Origin: an uncultured virus (IMG/VR IMGVR_UViG_3300030109_002631)
Taxonomy: Duplodnaviria > Heunggongvirae > Uroviricota > Caudoviricetes
Length of the DNA: 64,000 nucleotides
Virus record (IMG/VR): IMGVR_UViG_3300030109_002631
Location: 1 to 64,000 of that record
Strand: one strand, 5' to 3'
The notes beneath the pieces are model-generated. The model was not told where the DNA came from. It did not search any database and worked only from the letters and a program-made list of their open reading frames with translations. Shown in pieces: positions 4,181 to 57,236 of the stretch; the first letter of the stretch is position 1, and each line of letters starts with the position of its first letter. The translations under genes and the position numbers were made by a program.

Positions 4181-7100
4181 AATGCAGTACCTCTCCATGC
4201 TGTCGTATTACTCATAGCTACCTGAGTTCTTCCTCTACCTCTTACATTATGGTAATCAAACAAAGCAATCCTACCATAGTGAGTATATGTAGTATCTGCT
4301 GCGCCCGTTCCTGTTTTATCTAACAAGTAAGGATTATTATAAATATATTCTCCTGAGGTTTCAACAAATTGTACATCATTTTTAGTTTTATCTATTTCAT
4401 AATAAACAATTTCTTCTATAATACCTTCGTATCTACCTACACTTCCACTACCTATGTAAGTAACAGCAGTAGAACTGACTGCACTTGGTGCTGTACCGTT
4501 GTAAGCTTCTTCTTTACCGTTAACATATAATGCAAACTTTTTAACACCAGTTTGTTGGTATCGTACTGCAATTTGATAATTTACATCATTGTCTCTATCT
4601 AACTGAGTAGTTCCTGTTAATGAAACTCCTCTTTGTTGTACTACTACATTACCAGCAGCGTTAATAGATACTTCAAAACCATCACTACTTGCAGTTCCTT
4701 TTGAATATAAACTTCCACCACTTGCACTTGTAAGCATTGGTGTAGTATGTAATAAGAATAAATAATCTGTTGAACTAGTCATTGCTGCTCCTGAAGCATG
4801 TGGGAATTGTAAAAATCCATCTCCTCCAGTAGCGTATTTAGTTGCTCGGAAACCGTAACCCTGAAGACCTATAGGGTCTGCTCTACCATGAGCCCCTGAG
4901 GTCAAGGAACCACTAGAAAAACCATCTGTAGGTTTATAGAAGGTATATGCAGGACATGCTCCACTATTACCTGACTCATTAAGAGGCATCCATAATTCAG
5001 CATTACAGTATTTATTAGATATAGGGGCATCGTTAACGAATAACATTCTATACCATACATCATCACCTGATTCTTCCCACGTAAAATTAATTCCACTAAG
5101 GTTCTCATTTTGTAGTTCATATAAATTAGTTTCTTTATCTAATACATTAAACGCTGGACCTACTTGCATATTATTAATCATAGGTAATTCGTCATGGTAT
5201 CTAAATAAATAATGTGGTTTTATTAAATGCCAATCTGGTTCATCAGCAGCAGTATTATAATCGTTACCGTATAGGGTTGCACTTTGGTCAGCGGTTGGAC
5301 TGAATAAATTGATTGTGGTAACAAAGTCTTCGCTTGGTCCACTGTTATTTTTCTTTACGACCTGTGATATATCGAAAGGGGTTTGATAACCAGAATATAC
5401 AGTTTGTATATCTACTTCTCCTCCTTCTCCCGTATCTTCATCGAAGGCTCCAAAGCCATAATCTTTTGTTAAATCTAAATTAGTTTCGCTTTTTTCAGCT
5501 TTATCTAAAATCCAAGACTTTCCATAAACACCAGCCTTGGAAGAAGTTCCTACTAAAGCATTAGCTGCCTCAGTTGCATTCCAATTATAAGTCCATTCGT
5601 TCCATGTAGACCCTGTATTAGCAGCAGCTGGTGCTACTGTCCCTGAAAGAAGAGCTATTGTATCATAATATTTTGAAGTGTTACGTGCTTGAGCATTCAT
5701 AACATAAGTACCAGCAGCCTGAACAGCAGCATTACCCTTGAATCCCGTTCCTGCGAATACAAAACCACTCTGACTGGCGAAACTATCAGGTTCTCCGTCA
5801 GCAAACAGGGTACCATCTCCGGGATATAAAGCTAAATTAATCCAATACTTTCGTGGACATATATACCATGGATTACCTACTTTAAAATCAGCTCTTACTG
5901 AATCTAAAGGCATATCAAAGAAAATAACATCACCATCTCTTTTTCTTAACTGCCTTAATCCCTGAACATATAAACCTTGTGCATCTACGAATTCTCCTGT
6001 TCCTCCTGTTAAATAGAAAGGGTCTGTCATAGCACCACCATCTGCCCTATAAGCTATATATTCTGTATCTCCTAAAGTAGCTTCGTCAAATATATGTGGG
6101 TCATCTACTTGTAATACTCCTCCATTATAAGAGGATAAAGCAGAATCATCATCATATTTTGGAGCAGCTATAATTTTAGCAGCACATAAAGAGTTTTCAC
6201 GCTTAGCCCATCCATATACCATATTGTCTTGAGGAGCAGCATAATTAACTACTAAACCATCAGCTACAGTACCTGCTGAAACATCGCGGTCGATATTAGC
6301 AAACGTTGCAGTCAATGATACATTATTGAGTGTGTTACTACTTTTACCATTGTAATCACCTTCTCGTTTATTACCATCAGCATACGTTATAACAATAGTA
6401 CCTTTTGCATCTGGAAATAGAGAAGCATCATCTAAAACTAAAGTAGAAGGATTAGTTCCTTGTGCACCATCAACAGTAGTTTGAGCTCCATTACATACAT
6501 TAATTCTCATAGCTCCTTTTTGAGTAAATCCATCTGTACTGAGAACTGTATTAGCACTGCCAGTATATTGTAATAAAGATAATGGGGCTACAGGTGTACT
6601 GTCTGCGGGAATATTTCCTTTAGTTACATAAGAAGGTAATTTACCACTATCATTTCGACCTTCACTAGTTCCAGTTCCTCTACTATAATCTGAAAATAAA
6701 TCTTTACCTCGCTGTTGGATATATTTAGAAGACTGTGTTCCTGAAGTTTGCAAATTAAATCCAGATGAATACCATAGATTAGTACTATGCATATCTTGCC
6801 GACTTAATTTACTAAAATTATCTGAAGCAAAACCACTCCATAATAACCATCCTGTATAATCATTACCATACCCAGTACGTGCGCCCGTAGCGTATAAATC
6901 ACCAATTCCATTTTCAAAGCCAATAGATATGTAAGCTGGCATATATCTTTTAGGTAATTCTATACCTCTTGCATCAGGGAACTGAGAGAAACCTCCCACA
7001 TTCATGTTACTATACGAAGATATATTATCTGTAAGAGAACTATTATAATCAAGAAGTGTTCCTGAGTTAGTAGTAGTGTAATTACACCCCATATATCCTG

Positions 7101-36537: not shown

Positions 36538-38166
36538 TTATTTCTCTCTAATTGCTAAATAAATCTCAGGATGTTCAGTTGTCTTAACTTCATACCCTAT
36601 TTCATCTAAATAATCGAATAAATCGTTTTGGAGTTTAATGTTAGTTTTGTGGTGAGGTGGCCAGCTCTCGAATAGTATAGGTGGATAGTTATTATCTGTT
36701 AAAGTTTGAGAAGCACCCTTAAGGACTTCTAGTTCATACCCTTCAACATCTATTTTGATTAAACCAATGTCTTTTAAATTAAAGTGGTCTAATCTTCTAA
36801 TCTCTTTCATGTATTGCGCTTGATTATTACCTACCCAAGCGTCACCATCATATTCTAAGCGGAAACCATTTGTTCCACCATCTGTACTTCTTTCAAAGAA
36901 TGTTTTGAGTCCATCTTCGTTACCTAATGCTATATTATGGATATCTACCTTTCTTGATAGACCTTTAAGTAAAACATTGGCACTGAGATAGTTAAATGTT
37001 TCTACTGTAGGTTCAAAGGCATAAGTTCTTCTAAAATGAGGAGCTAAGGTCCAAGTATATGTTCCTACGTGTGCTCCTACGTCTACAAACACTTTATCAG
37101 CGTCTGCAAACTTATTTAGCGTCCATTCTATCATTTCATGTTCTGGAGCTTTGTAATCCTTTAAATATTGGACCATAGCTTCAGGGACCATGTAATTATT
37201 ATTATCCATCCTATATATCTTCTTTTCATCTTCTACTAAACATACTGCATCTGAATCTACATAGAATGCTTCAGGTATATTTAAATCTTCAGATATAATG
37301 TTAGCGTATTTAGGGTCTACACCATTTTCACACCTCTTACACATATCGTATGTCGTATTAGGTGGTGGTAATATATCATCATACTCTTCTTCGTATAGAT
37401 TACCTAAGATTTCTTCTAAATTGTAATCCATACAACATAATGATACCTCACCATTAGGGAGTAGTATATTATGATACAAGTCTTCTACACAACCACATGT
37501 TTTATCTCCTTCGTGGTATACTGACTTAAATTCATTCCATACTTCCTTTACTTCTGGTTTTAGTTGTGCTTCACCCAATAAGTTACCTGCTCTGTGCCAC
37601 ATTTCATATTTATTCACTTTTTCATCAGGGTACAGGTGTTCTACTTCTGGGTGTACAGTTCCCATTGCCATAGTTTGAAAATTATTGATATTAGCGTTCT
37701 TCAATGCTTCTACTACCTTAATGTATGTACTCGTAACTGGATGTTTGGCTCTATATTCTTTGTCTGGTAAGTGTAAGGTGAAACCACCATTAGGTCCACC
37801 ACAGTATGGTATATCCTTAAGACGTTCTACATCTTTAAGCTTCATACCTACAGCTGTTGTAAATACAGATACTCTATGCCCTTGTTCGTGTGCATATAGT
37901 AACATATCTGTAGCTTTGCTGTTTAACCATGGTTCTGTAAACCCAGAGAGTGTTATACGTACTTCTTTAGGTAATTTATCTATTACTTTCTTAAAGTCTT
38001 CTAACTGCATTGTTCTTGCTCTCTCTGTAGTAAACTTCTCAGCGTCCCATACTTTTTGTAAGACTCGCTGAGGACAAAAGACACAATCTACTACACATCC
38101 CTTTTTAGGGATAGAGGTTGTTATCTCTAAGGTAGGCCACTCTGTAACTCTCCAATATTCATTCAT
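36538..38166 (-). CDS. Radical SAM/SPASM fused to FkbM-family methyltransferase
   Basis: CxxxCxxC (CVVDCVFC), SGFTEP, SPASM-like NGEVSLCCMD...LGNL...CKRC; C-terminal VDVGAHVG, AFEP and IKIDVEGYE. Confidence 0.85.
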   Translation of the reverse strand: MNEYWRVTEWPTLEITTSIPKKGCVVDCVFCPQRVLQKVWDAEKFTTERARTMQLEDFKKVIDKLPKEVRITLSGFTEPWLNSKATDMLLYAHEQGHRVSVFTTAVGMKLKDVERLKDIPYCGGPNGGFTLHLPDKEYRAKHPVTSTYIKVVEALKNANINNFQTMAMGTVHPEVEHLYPDEKVNKYEMWHRAGNLLGEAQLKPEVKEVWNEFKSVYHEGDKTCGCVEDLYHNILLPNGEVSLCCMDYNLEEILGNLYEEEYDDILPPPNTTYDMCKRCENGVDPKYANIISEDLNIPEAFYVDSDAVCLVEDEKKIYRMDNNNYMVPEAMVQYLKDYKAPEHEMIEWTLNKFADADKVFVDVGAHVGTYTWTLAPHFRRTYAFEPTVETFNYLSANVLLKGLSRKVDIHNIALGNEDGLKTFFERSTDGGTNGFRLEYDGDAWVGNNQAQYMKEIRRLDHFNLKDIGLIKIDVEGYELEVLKGASQTLTDNNYPPILFESWPPHHKTNIKLQNDLFDYLDEIGYEVKTTEHPEIYLAIREK

Positions 38167-40459: not shown

Positions 40460-40664
40460 ACTCACTGTGACTATGAGGGGTAGGGTTATGACTAACCCCC
40501 CCCACCGTCCCTTTTTTGGCGGCACTGGGTTTGGCATCCCTAAGAAGTTTCCCGCCGTGAGAATGAGAAAATGTCGAGCAGGATTTTTTCCTTTATATAC
40601 CCCCTTCTCCAGACACCTAAAACCCCTCGAAAGCTTATATAGGGTGTTGCCTATGTATATATCA

Positions 40665-41003
40665 ATGGAAGCAAATCAAGCAAAACCGGATTTCTACATA
40701 TATGCCCTTGTGTCTACGAATGAAAATGTCAAAGGTGAAAATTCATTACGCGTGGACGTCGGGACTTTCGACGGACTCGGAGAGTCAATTGAATATATAG
40801 GAATCAGCCGAAACATGCCACAAAAAAGACTAAGTCAACACCATGCAAGCAAAAACAAAAATTTAGGAATGTTTGTTTTAGATTCTGAAATAAAATCAGA
40901 ATGGCATGCACTTAGAGACGAAGCAAAATATGTGAGCGACTACTTCGACCAATATGGCGAAGCACCAAAATTGCAGGGTGCTGCAAATTCAGGAAAATAC
41001 TAA
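40665..41003 (+). CDS. GIY-YIG superfamily nuclease-like protein, copy 1
   Basis: FYIYALV...YIGISRNMPQKRLSQH...ALRDEAKY; leaderless start 30 nt after TATA. Confidence 0.7.
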   Translation: MEANQAKPDFYIYALVSTNENVKGENSLRVDVGTFDGLGESIEYIGISRNMPQKRLSQHHASKNKNLGMFVLDSEIKSEWHALRDEAKYVSDYFDQYGEAPKLQGAANSGKY

Positions 41004-41175: not shown

Positions 41176-41470
41176 ACTCCTAATTCAATCATTCGCCCTA
41201 AGCGGAGCCGAAAGGCTCCTTCTCTTATTGTTCCTTTTTGGATGGCACTGGGTTTGGCACCCTATATATGTAGCGCTCCGTGAGAATGAGAAAGTGAGAG
41301 AGCGCGCCTCCCTTTATATACCCCCCTCTAGCTCGGCGCCCCCCTTTATATACCCCTCTCTATCTCGCCCATCCTCACCCGTGGCCCGCTCCCCTTTATA
41401 TACCCCCTTCTATCTCAGCCTCTTTTTCAAAAAAAGCAAAAGCTTATATAGGCACACTCAATCTCTAATT

Positions 41471-41797
41471 ATGCCTAAATCAAACGACCAAAAGCATTTT
41501 TTCATATATGCACTTGTCCCTACCGGTAGAACAACAGATTACCATCATGTGGACATGGCATCATTTGATGATGTAGTAAGCAGTTCCGTATATTACGGAC
41601 TAACTCAAAATCCACAAAAGAGATTGAGTCAACACAGACCACGAAAAGGTTCCGACCTCGGTATGGTTGTGATAGATGAATGTGACCATCCATTATTAGC
41701 TTTAAAGCTTGAAGCTGATTATACATATGAACATTTTAAGAGAACTGGTGAAATCCCAAAACATCAAGGGATGGCAAACAGCGGGGTATACAGCTAA
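41471..41797 (+). CDS. GIY-YIG superfamily nuclease-like protein, copy 2
   Basis: FFIYALV...YYGLTQNPQKRLSQH...ALKLEADY...QGMANSG.Y, paralogous to 40665-41003. Confidence 0.7.
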   Translation: MPKSNDQKHFFIYALVPTGRTTDYHHVDMASFDDVVSSSVYYGLTQNPQKRLSQHRPRKGSDLGMVVIDECDHPLLALKLEADYTYEHFKRTGEIPKHQGMANSGVYS

Positions 41798-42168: not shown

Positions 42169-42317
42169 AAACAAAACGAAAAGATGGATACACAGTAATC
42201 CACAGTGGGCGGGATGCCCGCGGTGGTAAGTATTGGTTAGTCCATGACCCTGACACAGGTGGTAGTAAATACATCTGGAAGAGAGGTCATGTCTGGGCAG
42301 GATTCCAAAAGGTATAA
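42165..42317 (+). CDS. Microprotein (50 aa)
   Basis: MKTKRKDGYTVIHSGRDARGGKYWLVHD...; translationally coupled to the upstream ORF. Confidence 0.55.
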   Translation: MKTKRKDGYTVIHSGRDARGGKYWLVHDPDTGGSKYIWKRGHVWAGFQKV

Positions 42318-42473
42318 GGTAGAGGCCCCTATATAAAGGGGCTCCGCTCGTGTGGACGGCCCCAAAAAGTGCGAGCGGGATTAAGTCCTTTATATACCCC
42401 CTTATAGAAATTTGAGTCCCTCGACGAGAGAACCCACCCATAATAATATATGCTCCCCTACTATTGGTATATT

Positions 42474-42542
42474 ATGAGCAAATACAGCACATGGTTAACC
42501 AGCTATATGGTTAGCATATCATACGCAACAAGGAAACTGTAA
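42474..42542 (+). CDS. Possible leaderless 22-aa peptide preceding a structured RNA
   Basis: MSKYSTWLTSYMVSISYATRKL* at the same cassette position (TATATTATGAGCA) as the 43111 ORF. Confidence 0.35.
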   Translation: MSKYSTWLTSYMVSISYATRKL

Positions 42543-42554
42543 ACATACATTCCG

Positions 42555-42765
42555 TGAGTTAGTCAGACAGTAAGATGTGGCCCAAGGAGTAGGCGCACCC
42601 CAACGGAAAGGGGCATGTCACCAACTGAAAGAGGTTAATAGCCAAGTTGGTATTAAGTGACTAATAACAGAGGAGGTCTGACAAGTGAAGATACTATGGG
42701 CAACTGGTCCCCATACGAAGGCTCTGCATGACCCTACTCCTCAGGCTGGATTGACCACCAGCCGA
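42555..42765 (+). ncRNA. Candidate pseudoknotted ncRNA A
   Basis: AGGAGTAGG 42585/CCTACTCCT 42733 crossed by GTCAGAC 42562/GTCTGAC 42676; also CCCC/GGGG, GTCAC/GTGAC, CCAACT/AGTTGG, TATGGG/CCCATA and GGCTGG/CCAGCC; no ORF. Confidence 0.6.
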
Positions 42766-42799
42766 CAACCTTATATAGGCATGGCCTATTGTATATTTA

Positions 42800-42966
42800 A
42801 CGGGGTAGCTCCCTGTTATCGGGTATGGCCGAACAAGTCCGCCACGGACTAAGGCACAGGGTAAGCAAACCAAGAACCAACTGGTGGAGGGATGCTTAAC
42901 TGGTAACGCGTCTACTATGTAGTGGCATAACGCGTTTGGAGGTATACATTAAATCCTCCTACCCAC
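42800..42966 (+). ncRNA. Candidate ncRNA B with its own promoter
   Basis: TATA at 42771; ends pair GGGTAG 42803/CTACCC 42959; inner stems CCCTGT/ACAGGG, AGTCCG/CGGACT, AAGCA/TGCTT, AACGCGT/ACGCGTT and GGAGG/CCTCC. Confidence 0.65.
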
Positions 42967-43110
42967 CTTATATACCCCCCTTTCCACGCTTGTGGATTTC
43001 AAAAAGTGCGAGCGGGATTTTTTCCTTTATATACCCCAATATAGGATTTTAGGGTTCTCGACGATAGGGGCCACCGAAAGTGGTATAAGTTAGCTCCCCT
43101 ATACTATATT

Positions 43111-43236
43111 ATGAGCAGAAGCGAACCATTTGGCAGTTGCGAAGACTGTGGGCTTGATGAAGTCGAATTATTCGGCGGACTGTGTGAAGATTGTGACACA
43201 CAAATGTTTACTACATTCTGGACCGGTGAGGAATAA
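43111..43236 (+). CDS. Zinc-finger microprotein (41 aa)
   Basis: MSRSEPFGSCEDCGLDEVELFGGLCEDCDTQMF...; leaderless after TATA at ~43084. Confidence 0.6.
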   Translation: MSRSEPFGSCEDCGLDEVELFGGLCEDCDTQMFTTFWTGEE

Positions 43237-47014: not shown

Positions 47015-48199
47015 ATGAGTAGAGGATACGCAACAGATAGACCATCCCCGTCTCAGTCCGCAACATGGTATGATGAGTGGACAGAAAGAGAAGGAGGAGA
47101 TGGTAAGATATGGCACGTGAAGAGAGATTCACGTGGAACTAAGAGATGGACACGTGGAGATGCTCCAGCGTGGACACATGAACTGAGAGTGGAAGACGAT
47201 AAGCTTATAAAGGACCCTATAGATGGGGATACAGATATGGAAGACAAAACCGAACACAGAGGACTCGATGACCTATTCGATGTAGGAGCTGAGAGCCCCA
47301 TGCCAGAAGAGGAACCAACCCCCGAAGAAGTGGTTGTAGAAAAAGACACAGTTATGACTAAGCTGAAAGGTTCAGTCAATGTGCCAGAAGAATTCAAATT
47401 CGCAGACAATATGACTTTCTATACTATGTTGAGAAACATATTTAGAGGTAAGAACATTCTCATCACAGGACCATCAGGTTGTGGTAAGAGTAGTCTCGGT
47501 AAGATATTAGCTGACATTACAGGTAAAGAGTTTTATTCTTTTAACTTTGGTGATACTATGAATCCCTCAGCTAAACTATTAGGTGATACTAAGTATAACA
47601 AAGAAGATGGAACATGGTTCAAGCCGTCTCGGTTCGTTAAGGCTATACAAGCTGACTCGTTTATTATGTTAGATGAGGTAACACGTGACCGAACAGGTGA
47701 CTTAGCCAATATCTTAATGCCTGTCTTAGATGGACAGAAGTATTTAGCTCTCGATGAGAGTGAGGATGCTGACTCAGTTGAGGTTGACGCACGAGCTTTC
47801 TTCTTCGCAACTGCGAATATAGGTAGAGAGTATCTCGGTGCATCACATGATTTAGATAGAGCATGGAAAGATAGATTCACTGGTGGTATATATGAATTAG
47901 ATTATCTACCTATGAATAAAGAAAAAGAATTGATTATGATTAGAAGCCCTCAGTTAGATGAGTGGAACGCAGAGAAGATTGTAGACTTTGCAAAGAGAGT
48001 GCGTGACTTATACAAGTCCGACGAACTAACAACAGCCGTCTCAACTCGTATGTGTTTAGCGGTAGCTGAACTCGTAGTAGATGGGATGCCTTTGATAGAT
48101 GCATTGAAACATACCTGTCTACCATTCTACCCTATTCAGGGTGGTGACGATACTGAGAGAGTAAGAATAGTTCAAGTCATTCAATCTATGGGTGACTGA
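47015..48199 (+). CDS. MoxR/CbbQ-type AAA+ ATPase
   Basis: GPSGCGKS, MLDEVTR, FFATANIG.EY.G, LDRAWKDRF, VSTRM. Confidence 0.9.
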   Translation: MSRGYATDRPSPSQSATWYDEWTEREGGDGKIWHVKRDSRGTKRWTRGDAPAWTHELRVEDDKLIKDPIDGDTDMEDKTEHRGLDDLFDVGAESPMPEEEPTPEEVVVEKDTVMTKLKGSVNVPEEFKFADNMTFYTMLRNIFRGKNILITGPSGCGKSSLGKILADITGKEFYSFNFGDTMNPSAKLLGDTKYNKEDGTWFKPSRFVKAIQADSFIMLDEVTRDRTGDLANILMPVLDGQKYLALDESEDADSVEVDARAFFFATANIGREYLGASHDLDRAWKDRFTGGIYELDYLPMNKEKELIMIRSPQLDEWNAEKIVDFAKRVRDLYKSDELTTAVSTRMCLAVAELVVDGMPLIDALKHTCLPFYPIQGGDDTERVRIVQVIQSMGD

Positions 48200-48631
48200 T
48201 TGGGTTATCTTAGTTCGATAAAGACAATGGAGTATAAAATGGTAAGACGAAAAAAGAAAGTATTAAAGAGAAAGCATACATATTGGCATCAGTTAGCTAA
48301 AATAATGTTAGGCTTTGGTTTCAAACCAACTATGGTAGGACATATATTAAAAGATGTATTCCCAGAGACTGAGGTAAATGGCAGACATGTCGGTGCATAC
48401 AAACGTAGACTGATACAGGATGATGAACTGATTGTGCCAGAGAAAGCAACTATGTCACGCAACGAAGCTTCTCAACTCGCACCAGAACTGGTCTCAACAG
48501 AAGACATGTTCATATACAAGTGCACAGTTGGGTCAGCTAAGAAAAGTTTAGAATGCTTTCAGTTCAAGTTTAAAGCAGAAGATGTTAGTGCAGTGGAGGA
48601 AGTAGAAGAATGGATTACGGCGATTCAGTAG
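48200..48631 (+). CDS. Hypothetical protein (possible HTH)
   Basis: ORF between the AAA and vWA genes. Confidence 0.6.
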   Translation: MGYLSSIKTMEYKMVRRKKKVLKRKHTYWHQLAKIMLGFGFKPTMVGHILKDVFPETEVNGRHVGAYKRRLIQDDELIVPEKATMSRNEASQLAPELVSTEDMFIYKCTVGSAKKSLECFQFKFKAEDVSAVEEVEEWITAIQ

Positions 48632-50739
48632 ACGAGTGGGCTGAGGAAAGCGACGAAGACTACTGCTATGCATGTGATGACTGGGCTGAGGATGACGGTC
48701 ATGGTAACTGTAATGAGTGTGGTGTCAGTTTCAAAACTGTAGACCCATTTATCTCACCATCAGTTGCAAAGACCTACAGTTCACCAGCACCAGCCGTCTC
48801 ATCTCACGGTGATGTATGGAACAGAGGTTCCGCTTACACATGGGGCAGAGGTGCTTCATGGTGGGGTGGTTCAGGTTCAATGACCTCATCATGGGGTTGG
48901 GGTTCCTCAGTATCACACAGTGACAATACAGCTCGTATGTTAAAACATAAGAGACACTTAGATTCTCTCTGTAAAGTAGTAGACCCTAACGTAAAACATG
49001 TTCTTAACTTCTCAACTGACGGCTCGAATGTATCTAACATGAGTAAAGGAACTATCTATGTTGATGGTTCTTTGTTAGAGAGTAATGATGATAAGTTAGA
49101 TGTAGTAGCAGGTCTCTCAATTCACGAGAAGCTACACTTAGTTCATACTAAACCATTAGTTAAATGGGAAAGAGAGTATGCAGATGATAAGATGTTGAGT
49201 CACATTGAAGAGAGGCTACTACACAATATTGGTAACATTATTGAAGATGAGTATATAGAGTCTCAGTTGGCTAAGACACATGCAGGTTATGTAAACTACA
49301 TCCAGAAAGTGAAAGAACATTACTTTGAGAAACATGGACATAAGATTGAAGAATGTAAAGACCCGTTCGCAGATGTATTGAACACTCTCTTAGCGATGGT
49401 TAGATATCCTCAGTCCATAGATGCTACACGTAAAAGGAAACATGCAAAGCATATTCAGTTCTTCGGTAGAGCATTGAAGGATGGACTCAAAGACAGAGAA
49501 AGTTCTCTTCTTTGTATACGAGTATTGTATGAGTATATGCGTCAGTTAGCTGAACAACATGCAAAAGAATCTAAAGAGAAAGATGAAGAAAGTATGATGG
49601 AAAGAGCAACTGAAAAGTTAGATGAAATCATGGATTCATACAAAGAGAGTGGTGTTGAGAAAGAAATATCAGAAAAAGATTTAGATAGGATGCTCGACCA
49701 ATTACTCAAGGATGAAAAGAAAAGTGCAGAGAGGACAAGTAGGTATGGTGAACAGAGGGTTATCAGAGATGGTCTCGATTCACATCCCGTTGAACTCACT
49801 GACTATGATAAAGCTATGGGTAAGATTGACATGGACTTAGATAAAAAGATTAGAGACTTAGAAGACAGTGACTACTCAGAAGAAAAGTGGACTGGTGACA
49901 AAGCTCTCGGTTTAAAACAAGGAACTAAAGTCACATGGAAGAACCAACGAAGTCATACAGAAAGAGAGGCACATCAATATGATGAGGCAATTACATCTAT
50001 GAAAGCACCTATATCAGGTCTAAAGAGACGCATCTCTCTTTACGGTGACACTAAGGTTCACACTATAAGAAATCAACGTAGAGGTAGATTAGATAAAAAG
50101 ATGTTACATAAGATACCTCTCGGTAGAGATGACTTATTCAAAAACATTGTAGTTGACGAAGACAAACCATTAGATGTATGTCTCTTAGTTGACGAGTCAG
50201 GTAGTATGGGTTACGGTAAAATGAAGAAAGCGAGAGAGTGTGCTATAGCATTACGAGAAGCACTAAAAGATAATCAAGCTCTCAACCTATGGGTCTTTGG
50301 ACACACAGCTGACGGTTATGACTGGGATGATAAGATGGCAACCAATATGTCAGTATACTGGTCACCTACTTACCAACAGGATTTGAAAGCTATGGGTGCT
50401 ATGAGAGCACGTTCAGAGAACAGAGATGGTATGGCTATCTTAGCCTCAGCTGACAAAGTAAAGAGTGAATCACCATCAACATCAAGTAACAAACTTATGA
50501 TTGTTATCTCAGATGGTGAACCCTCAGCTGATAAGTATCGTGGCTTTGAAGCAGTAGGTCATGTATCAAAAGTAGTAAAGCACCTTGAAGGACAAGGATG
50601 GAATATAATTCAGATTGGTATTCGTGGTGCATCTACATCTATCATGGATAGAATGTTTACTAACTGGATTTATGTAGATGATGAAGCTCAGTTAGCTAAC
50701 AAAGTAGGAAGAATAGTAAGGAAGGTGATTAAAGTTTGA
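48610..50739 (+). CDS. vWA-domain (CobT-like) partner of the MoxR ATPase, with N-terminal Zn ribbon and HExxH motif
   Basis: CYAC...CNEC, HEKLH...NIIEDEYIE, MIDAS LLVDESGSM...VISDGEP. Confidence 0.88.
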   Translation: MDYGDSVDEWAEESDEDYCYACDDWAEDDGHGNCNECGVSFKTVDPFISPSVAKTYSSPAPAVSSHGDVWNRGSAYTWGRGASWWGGSGSMTSSWGWGSSVSHSDNTARMLKHKRHLDSLCKVVDPNVKHVLNFSTDGSNVSNMSKGTIYVDGSLLESNDDKLDVVAGLSIHEKLHLVHTKPLVKWEREYADDKMLSHIEERLLHNIGNIIEDEYIESQLAKTHAGYVNYIQKVKEHYFEKHGHKIEECKDPFADVLNTLLAMVRYPQSIDATRKRKHAKHIQFFGRALKDGLKDRESSLLCIRVLYEYMRQLAEQHAKESKEKDEESMMERATEKLDEIMDSYKESGVEKEISEKDLDRMLDQLLKDEKKSAERTSRYGEQRVIRDGLDSHPVELTDYDKAMGKIDMDLDKKIRDLEDSDYSEEKWTGDKALGLKQGTKVTWKNQRSHTEREAHQYDEAITSMKAPISGLKRRISLYGDTKVHTIRNQRRGRLDKKMLHKIPLGRDDLFKNIVVDEDKPLDVCLLVDESGSMGYGKMKKARECAIALREALKDNQALNLWVFGHTADGYDWDDKMATNMSVYWSPTYQQDLKAMGAMRARSENRDGMAILASADKVKSESPSTSSNKLMIVISDGEPSADKYRGFEAVGHVSKVVKHLEGQGWNIIQIGIRGASTSIMDRMFTNWIYVDDEAQLANKVGRIVRKVIKV

Positions 50740-53800: not shown

Positions 53801-54403
53801 ATGAAAGAGATAATGGAAAAATATAGCACCACATTTTTTGAAGCGATGGATACATGGCCCGATGAACTCAAAGAAGATATATACAAGTTATATGCTTACT
53901 TAAGAGTATGTGATGAAATGGTAGAAGGAGCTGAGTTAGCTGACTTCACACATTGGAGAGAAGTAATAGAACAATTCTATGAAGTAAGTGATAAGTATCA
54001 GTTCAAGGGTGAATGGTTAGCAGATTTTCATTTAGCTATGTATACTGATTTAGTTAAGAAAGAACATACTGTGAAGTCTATGCTTGAGTATTGTAAAGGT
54101 TCAGCTGAGTCAGTAGGTGTAATGATGGCATCTATATTAGGCTGTGACCCACGAGCTGAGAGACATGCAAGGGCTTTAGGTAGAGCATATCAAATAATAA
54201 ACTTTGTTAGAGACTATGAAGAAGATATAGCTAATGGTTACCATTATATTACTGATGATTTTAATTTATATATTAAATTATTTATGGAAGATTTGCAGAT
54301 AGGTGTAGAAGGATTACACTTCATACCTGAAGACTTACGTGGTCCTATACTACATGCTAATCAATCATACATAGAGGTGGCACGTGAAGCCAACCTACTA
54401 TAA
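53801..54403 (+). CDS. Compact phytoene/squalene synthase-like (CrtB/SQS) prenyltransferase
   Basis: YSTTF, LYAYLRVCDEMVE, YCKGSAESVG.M, ALGRAYQIINFVRDYEED. Confidence 0.8.
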   Translation: MKEIMEKYSTTFFEAMDTWPDELKEDIYKLYAYLRVCDEMVEGAELADFTHWREVIEQFYEVSDKYQFKGEWLADFHLAMYTDLVKKEHTVKSMLEYCKGSAESVGVMMASILGCDPRAERHARALGRAYQIINFVRDYEEDIANGYHYITDDFNLYIKLFMEDLQIGVEGLHFIPEDLRGPILHANQSYIEVAREANLL

Positions 54404-56867: not shown

Positions 56868-57236
56868 ATGTTTAGAGGTAGAGATAGAGAACTGTTAGAA
56901 ATGTGGCAGGACCTTCTCGGTGCAATAGAGATGGTAGAAGTCCCTCGCTACACAAGGTCAAATCCAAATAAGAACGTTCAAGTCGATGAACAGAACGGAA
57001 CCATTACTATCACTGCTGAGATGGCAGGGGTAGACAAAGAACAGGTAGATATCGAAGTAAGTAATAGAACAGTAACCATTAAAGCAGAATCAGAAAGAAA
57101 GAACTTTACATGGGACAGAACTTTTGATTACGAGATTGACCCTGAGTCAGTGAAAGCAACTATGGTTAATGGAATACTTGACATGACTATAGAAAAGAAA
57201 TCGAAAACAAGTGCAAAGAAAGTGGAGATAAAATGA
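56868..57236 (+). CDS. hsp20: Small heat-shock protein (Hsp20)
   Basis: ITAEMAGVDKEQVDIEV...IDPESVKATMVNGILDMTIEK alpha-crystallin domain; ATG at 56868 with GAGG SD. Confidence 0.9.
   Translation: MFRGRDRELLEMWQDLLGAIEMVEVPRYTRSNPNKNVQVDEQNGTITITAEMAGVDKEQVDIEVSNRTVTIKAESERKNFTWDRTFDYEIDPESVKATMVNGILDMTIEKKSKTSAKKVEIK

Follow-up and report, generated by a model that had tools for sequence, protein, structure and literature searches.

What kind of RNA is made from the region near position 42,800 of this viral genome, and what it would do for the virus, are the two questions raised by the locus. The window (the whole 64,000-nucleotide stretch of DNA analysed) belongs to the record of a ~66-kb tailed virus, with genes for a major capsid protein (MCP), portal, terminase, tape measure protein and family B polymerase (PolB). 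It had been predicted from the sequence that a stand-alone, closed multibranch small RNA is transcribed here from an early promoter, and an Rfam search was proposed as a check. This search upheld the structured RNA and supplied what the original prediction had missed, namely that it belongs to a known family: positions 42798-42969 match the manA RNA over its full length (RF01745; cmscan, model positions 1-192, 67.1 bits against a gathering cut-off of 55.2, E 6.5e-15). It is practically certain that this is a genuine manA RNA, and it is the sole copy in the 66,265-base genome record.

42798-42969, + strand: manA RNA (RF01745), compact subtype, identified by cmscan and covariation

When the manA family was described in 2010, its members came from gamma-proteobacteria, cyanophages and marine metagenomes; they commonly lay in potential 5' UTRs, and a 5' UTR role was considered probable (Weinberg et al. 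2010, PMC2864571). Compared with the parts of that description used here, the present RNA agrees in its full-length match above the cut-off and in the order of its helices, and its subtype is already represented in the seed; it differs in being carried by what is probably an archaeal virus, behind a TATA promoter and with no adjoining regulated gene, and in its length of ~172 nt, with a middle domain reduced to a single hairpin. Taking into account that the RF01745 seed holds an anonymous ocean read (JCVI_SCAF_1096628383680) differing, by eye, at ~2 positions from the manA of a related virus (L089), neither the family nor the compact subtype is new. In the openly accessible literature, no report was found linking manA to tRNA-likeness or to archaeal viruses, and the words 'tRNA' and 'archaea' have no mention in the main text of a preprint on manA oligomers (bioRxiv 10.64898/2026.07.01.735769). 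Parts of PMC9964418, PMC7779021 and bioRxiv 2020.02.04.933952 were also considered.

Occurrence in related and cyanophage-type loci

Related viral loci were fetched through the nearby AAA ATPase gene, and manA is present in 13 of the 17; among the remaining four, two are cut short upstream and two (L065, L078) have 10 kb of upstream flank. The RNA is found at different places and on both strands among these relatives, and five loci of the virus clade (L068, L075, L076, L077, L105) score below the Rfam cut-off. A general manA pattern retrieved 62 loci that are cyanophage-like, 60 of them sharing no protein with the virus studied here and two giving weak PolB matches. A gene or a tRNA often stands directly after manA in these cyanophage-type loci, and a tRNA lies within the flank in 13 of the 62.

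When viral and metagenome loci are taken together as 56 distinct rows, a short hairpin precedes manA in 39 (one an artefact; the flags of L128 in this tally are an artefact of a cut sequence end). The preceding hairpin usually ends in the same CCACCUUA-like tail as manA and, in the loci inspected, is found behind an early gene, on its 3' side. Processing of the transcript or mimicry of an anti-Shine-Dalgarno sequence are possible roles for it. Most relatives have this hairpin, 40 nt before manA: L063, L067, L069-L075, L079, L085, L087 and L089.

Fold and covariation

A multibranch fold beyond chance expectation had been predicted and is borne out (MFE -61 kcal/mol, z -3.1; none of 200 shuffles folds as well), the z of the reverse strand being -1.85. 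The helix that closes it is a different one. The pairing first proposed, GGGUAG (42803) with CUACCC (42959), has a pair probability of 0.0005, costs 6.8 kcal/mol and is fully complementary in 2 of the 17 parsed homologues; the true closing stem joins GGGUA (42821) to UACCC (42960), with a pair probability of 0.87-0.99, and the first 21 nt of manA form their own separate hairpin 5' of this stem. The suggested Y RNA-like architecture, with the 5' and 3' ends paired as the closing stem, had to be abandoned, as the ends are not so paired and the Y RNA family gave no match at E<=1. The parts of the RNA are as follows.

42798-42818, + strand: 5' hairpin P1, 8 bp, from the MFE structure; 6 of 8 pairs co-vary
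42821-42825, + strand: 5' strand of the closing, acceptor-like stem, pairing with 42960-42964 (probability 0.87-0.99; 100% paired; 3 of 5 pairs co-vary)
42826-42856, + strand: segment like a class II tRNA D arm, the D loop carrying an extra hairpin (42837-42849); the loop of this hairpin with its closing pair, 42841-42845, is complementary to 42922-42926
42857-42902, + strand: middle domain, a single long hairpin of irregular pairing where a tRNA has its anticodon arm (helices 7-8 of the alignment; compared by eye with cyanophage sequences)
42903-42937, + strand: long stem like a variable arm, whose loop holds two pairing segments, 42917-42921 and 42922-42926
42938-42959, + strand: T-arm-like hairpin, 5-bp stem and 12-nt loop; 42945-42949 complementary to 42917-42921
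42960-42969, + strand: 3' strand of the closing stem, followed by an A-C-C-U-U tail

In a MAFFT alignment of 18 sequences, of which L090 comes from a different context, 90% of cells are paired and 38 of 56 pairs show double-sided changes, figures which are not to be taken as probabilities, since it was the window sequence that supplied the structure and the aligned sequences are related to one another. None of 500 shuffles reaches the manA level, and slid registers give 39-48% paired. The compensatory changes that were expected in related viral contigs are thus present. By eye, the middle domain of cyanophage manA is a multi-hairpin one, whereas in the present RNA a single irregular hairpin takes its place.

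Relation to class II tRNAs

The junctions of manA can be read as those of a class II tRNA with enlarged loops. A grammar written for this frame parsed 17 of 19 virus-clade loci (L077 and L105 were left unparsed) and 52 of 62 cyanophage-type loci, and it has a single match in the whole window. Among positions that the grammar does not force, U48 and R26 are found in 17 of 17 parsed homologues, A58 in 16 and Y60 in 15. The tRNA position numbers assigned to manA here (U8, A14, Y48 and the rest) follow the usual tRNA numbering. With class II tRNAs (Ser/Tyr/Leu) manA has in common U8, G9, a 3-bp D stem, A14, R15, A21 and R26, as well as a long variable arm, Y48, a 5-bp T stem with G53-C61, U54, A58 and Y60. 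Unlike them, it has a 5-bp acceptor (16 of 17 parsed homologues) and an additional 5' hairpin, and it has neither the elbow bases (G18-G19 and C56 in 0 of 17, U55 in 3 of 17) nor an anticodon loop. An A-C-C tail stands in register in only 10 of the 17.

Profiles were built from phage tRNAs only (52 parsed of 55; 11 of class II). The class II profile, from which the positions that manA lacks (18-19, 55-56 and the anticodon loop) were omitted and whose position set was chosen after manA had been seen, ranks manA first in the window with 27.4 bits. The runner-up site has 7.8 bits, and no site in 12 Markov windows exceeds 16.9. Genuine class II tRNAs, self-scored with this profile, reach 10.9-34 bits, and a class I profile does not select manA in the window. 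Positions 8-14 and 21-26 of manA are identical to those of a phage tRNA-Ser(UGA). Thus, the core positions and the order of the arms of a class II tRNA are present in manA, for a position set chosen after seeing it. A true tRNA was considered and rejected: ARAGORN made no call, the Rfam tRNA model gave no hit at E<=10, and the 7-bp acceptor, the G18-G19/U55-C56 elbow and the 7-nt anticodon loop are missing.

Judged from sequence comparison, there is good reason to think that manA is built on a class II tRNA frame, and its descent from a tRNA may be inferred. With its elbow bases lost and an acceptor of 5 bp, manA is a poor candidate for simple mimicry of a tRNA before enzymes that read the elbow. 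The description of this RNA as 'tRNA-mimic-like' is upheld for its architecture by parse and profile, more strongly than could be foreseen from the letters.

RNAs with the same D-arm-like motif occur in unrelated viral contigs (L092, L093, L095, L097, L100, L101, L103, L106), several of them having, by eye, a T-arm-like hairpin and a closing stem. The RNAs of this L092-L106 set had no Rfam match at the gathering score and possibly represent a wider set of tRNA-framed viral RNAs. In L098, a relative of the virus, a tRNA-Glu (5487-5562) lies ~330 nt after manA, and L094 (8332-8418) and L104 have a tRNA-Leu in the locus, along with an RNA that shares the 5' motif and is far larger.

Promoter and transcription unit

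The TATA-like box predicted at 42771 is present (TTATATA). Early genes of this virus are leaderless behind TATA boxes, with the ATG ~27 nt on, and for the promoter copies at 41444, 43865 and 44306 the ATG of a leaderless ORF lies exactly 27 nt on. Counted from the manA box, the same +27 position is 42798, where the Rfam model begins, so that a start at 42798-42799 is obtained; the predicted start 'near 42800' is supported by the promoter register and is moved to this position. No sigma-70 promoter or intrinsic terminator for the manA of the window was found at the right place, and there is no terminator-like site behind it.

42767-42797, + strand: TATA-type promoter of the early-gene family, TTATATA at 42771-42777, putatively active
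43083-43236, + strand: next gene, a 41-aa ORF (43111-43236) starting 145 nt after the manA closing stem and preceded by a separate TATA-type promoter

A TATA box stands directly before manA in four of the 56 distinct rows (the window, L068, L120, L170). In cyanophage-type loci, sigma-70-like boxes lie directly before the 5' hairpin in 48 of 48, as scored with a loose pattern and no null. As a promoter can sit at the first base of the RNA in both groups, an RNA gene fits better than a leader. The manA of the window is not the potential 5' UTR of a metabolic gene, the next ORF being 145 nt away with its own TATA, and the manA of relatives lies 3' of genes. Short ORFs found 34-65 nt downstream of manA in some rows were judged mechanical. 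The start at the first base of manA together with the separate promoter of the next gene argues against the 'cis-regulatory' label that Rfam gives to the family. Taken together, promoter register and gene context support the prediction of a stand-alone small RNA from an early promoter, and manA is here probably a stand-alone transcript.

TTATATA boxes of another family, which have a C-rich run behind them and lack an ATG at +27, occur in the window at 40593, 41314, 41346, 41396, 42390, 42968, 43027 and 45085, one box overlapping the 3' tail of manA. A palindrome, TTCCAC-N4-GTGGA, recurs at 42980, 43831, 44272 and 45033. Since the turning point of the GC skew lies at ~40-42 kb, near the manA region, these boxes and palindromes may be origin or regulator sites.

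A second structured RNA and expression

Directly upstream of the manA unit lies another conserved element, named here RNA-2.

42547-42763, + strand: RNA-2, second conserved structured RNA, ~200 nt, no Rfam family

Homologues were found in L063 (4739-4951), L069 (6230-6435), L071 (5544-5761), L073, L074, L075, L085, L087, L089, L107, L111 and L114. Support for this candidate is comparative: across 13 sequences, 22 of 46 predicted pairs show double-sided changes. RNA-2 has no Rfam match at E<=1, its sequence alone folds no better than shuffles (z -0.43), and an exact 20-nt pattern from its 3' hairpin retrieved no viral contig. It contains an invariant CUGA with GUGAWG close behind, which may resemble an archaeal D'/C' box pair. 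As RNA-2 lies 2-4 kb from manA in relatives, the two are separate units.

Expression data consisted of assembled contigs only, from four of the six RNA runs that had a non-zero share. Exact RNA contigs cover RNA-2 at 42529-42761 and 42562-42766 (two runs of one study), ending just before the manA promoter. In runs X1 and X3 the exact RNA-2 of this virus is present; that they lack an exact contig of manA does not show manA to be absent, and X1 has three contigs of a variant manA. In X6 there is one exact manA contig of depth 3 (42898-43048), covering the 3' half and continuing ~80 nt past the 3' end; in X2 RNA contigs cover 42235-42503 only.

Carrier virus and host

Other genes of the virus include the following.

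36538-38166: radical SAM-FkbM fusion
47015-50739: AAA ATPase and vWA pair
53801-54403: squalene/phytoene synthase-like gene
56868-57236: Hsp20

At 40660-41003 and 41470-41797 there are two short genes resembling each other, alike in their promoter and with peptide motifs in common, which by eye look like GIY-YIG-type paralogues; their longer ORFs had no Pfam match.

Cultured relatives were sought with the RNA, which had no blastn match among 50,697 phage records, and with the MCP, which had no match; PolB finds matches at only the 21-25% identity level among the 20 listed of 99 cultured-phage records. Relatives of the MCP come from metagenome collections, Tara included. In the PDB, the top matches to PolB are B polymerases of archaea. 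The best family of Hsp20 is also an archaeal one, below the cut-off. These two observations, together with the leaderless genes behind TATA boxes, point to an archaeal host, and the host is probably archaeal. Neither an MCP scan nor the exact manA pattern gave a host link in the genome contigs searched.

With the magroviruses, viruses of Poseidoniales, this virus shares its marine, tailed dsDNA nature, PolB, portal, terminase and MCP (PMC11706807, PMC10160649), as well as a vWA-domain protein, present in Velanvirus, a magrovirus. It is unlike them in its size (66 kb against an average of ~100 kb) and in that no chaperonin was noticed here. No reference magrovirus is among the PolB and MCP matches listed, and six IMG identifiers are absent from two supplements of PMC11706807.

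Loop-loop complementarity

Two loop-loop complementarities of 5 bp in the window change in step across relatives: that between the loop of the D-loop hairpin (42837-42849) and 42922-42926 in the variable-arm loop, whose polarity is flipped in cyanophages, and that between the T-position loop (42945-42949) and 42917-42921. In the virus clade, true partners match better than exchanged ones, only 3 and 12 of 2000 permutations doing as well for the two pairs (409 of 2000 for the control pair L3-L9), and with all 57 sequences the swap test gives 0 of 2000 for both pairs; L057, a mis-parse, was left out. For loop L3 in cyanophages, where there is hardly any variation, the swap test falls short of significance (492 of 2000) for that reason.

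According to the preprint on manA cryo-EM, L3-L8', L8-L9' and L5-L7' kissing interactions hold together pentamers, decamers built from pentamers, and a 60-mer; its results describe manA RNAs that formed oligomers, and the L5-L7' pair is used in both pentamer types described (bioRxiv 10.64898/2026.07.01.735769). From analogy with these structures, we infer that the two co-varying pairs match the L3-L8 and L8-L9 contacts, a loop naming which the supplementary diagrams of the preprint could change. Compared with those oligomers, the complementarities assigned to L3-L8 and L8-L9 would be kept here with compensatory changes, whereas by eye no counterpart of L5-L7 was noticed in this subtype. The L5-L7 pair seems to be absent because the middle domain is a single irregular hairpin; the compact subtype may therefore stay monomeric. 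Covariation cannot tell intra- from intermolecular pairing. By analogy with the cryo-EM structures, it is likely, by a modest degree, that the manA RNA of this virus oligomerises through kissing loops.

Proposed function and alternatives

The explanation that best accounts for the whole is that this locus is a stand-alone early non-coding RNA gene, tRNA-framed and oligomerising, of a marine and probably archaeal tailed virus, to which we give a probability of about 0.6. The host RNA polymerase would start at ~42798-42799 from the TATA promoter, and the product, a member of the manA family of ~170 nt, would fold on the frame of a class II (Ser/Tyr/Leu-type) tRNA, as covariation and profile show, with a short acceptor-like stem, a D arm, an arm at the anticodon position, a long variable arm and a T arm. 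In place of the D-loop/T-loop elbow there would be a hairpin in the D loop and a T loop of larger size, both of which are complementary to the loop of the variable arm. Following the manA cryo-EM structures, these loop contacts would link copies into closed oligomers, e.g., pentamers or decamers. The last and weakest step is that the oligomer, being stable and multivalent, might gather or soak up RNA-binding proteins of the host during takeover, as a scaffold or sponge; this is the most plausible role, and it is put forward with considerable doubt.

The classical proposal (Rfam; Weinberg et al. 2010) is that manA is a cis-regulatory leader or riboswitch, whose ligand-dependent folding would control the gene downstream. 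The common position in potential 5' UTRs (PMC2864571), the gene or tRNA that often follows in cyanophage-type loci, and an ORF starting 4 nt after manA in L118 speak in its favour; against it, the next ORF of the window is distant and has its own TATA, as has the conserved next gene of L063, L070, L071 and L085, 575-779 nt away, manA lies 3' of an early gene in most relatives, and nothing resembling a terminator follows it, all of which makes a leader very unlikely here. A further proposal would make manA a 3'-end stabiliser or processing element of early mRNAs, cut out as a by-product by tRNA-processing enzymes. The hairpin preceding it in 39 of the 56 rows, mostly with the tail that manA itself has, and the tRNAs flanking 13 of the 62 cyanophage-type loci agree with this idea, and they have to be set against the promoter of its own that manA has in the window, L068, L120 and L170, where there is no upstream mRNA to protect; its probability is slight.

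Rather unlikely as well, on present evidence, is a monomeric tRNA-like decoy, in which the two loop-loop pairs would be intramolecular pseudoknots rebuilding the L shape, the RNA titrating a synthetase or a host defence protein that binds or cleaves tRNAs. The class II core, the identity to tRNA-Ser(UGA), the label 'pseudoknot?' in the 2010 drawing of manA (PMC2864571) and the seeming loss of one intermolecular interface in this subtype are all in keeping with such a decoy; however, the elbow bases are missing, the acceptor is short, the A-C-C tail is often out of register, there is no anticodon loop, and the manA RNAs in the results of the preprint are oligomeric (bioRxiv 10.64898/2026.07.01.735769).

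Beyond this locus, and as a tentative view, manA RNAs may be class II tRNAs, probably Ser/Tyr, turned by viruses into self-assembling blocks, with the elbow converted into kissing loops. They would be used by bacterial and archaeal viruses as independent early transcripts and would be part of a wider, uncatalogued set of tRNA-framed viral RNAs, the compact version being a minimal assembly unit made alongside RNA-2. The manA family has been without an assigned function since 2010, and it is now notable as the first natural RNA-only icosahedral cage. A copy driven by a promoter of archaeal type, and lacking a gene that it could regulate, makes the riboswitch label less convincing, and the class II tRNA frame suggests an origin open to comparison with the cryo-EM coordinates of manA monomers deposited as PDB 23NT, 23NO and 24QD. 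A natural variant of 172 nt, seemingly without one of the interfaces, would offer a direct test of the rules of assembly.
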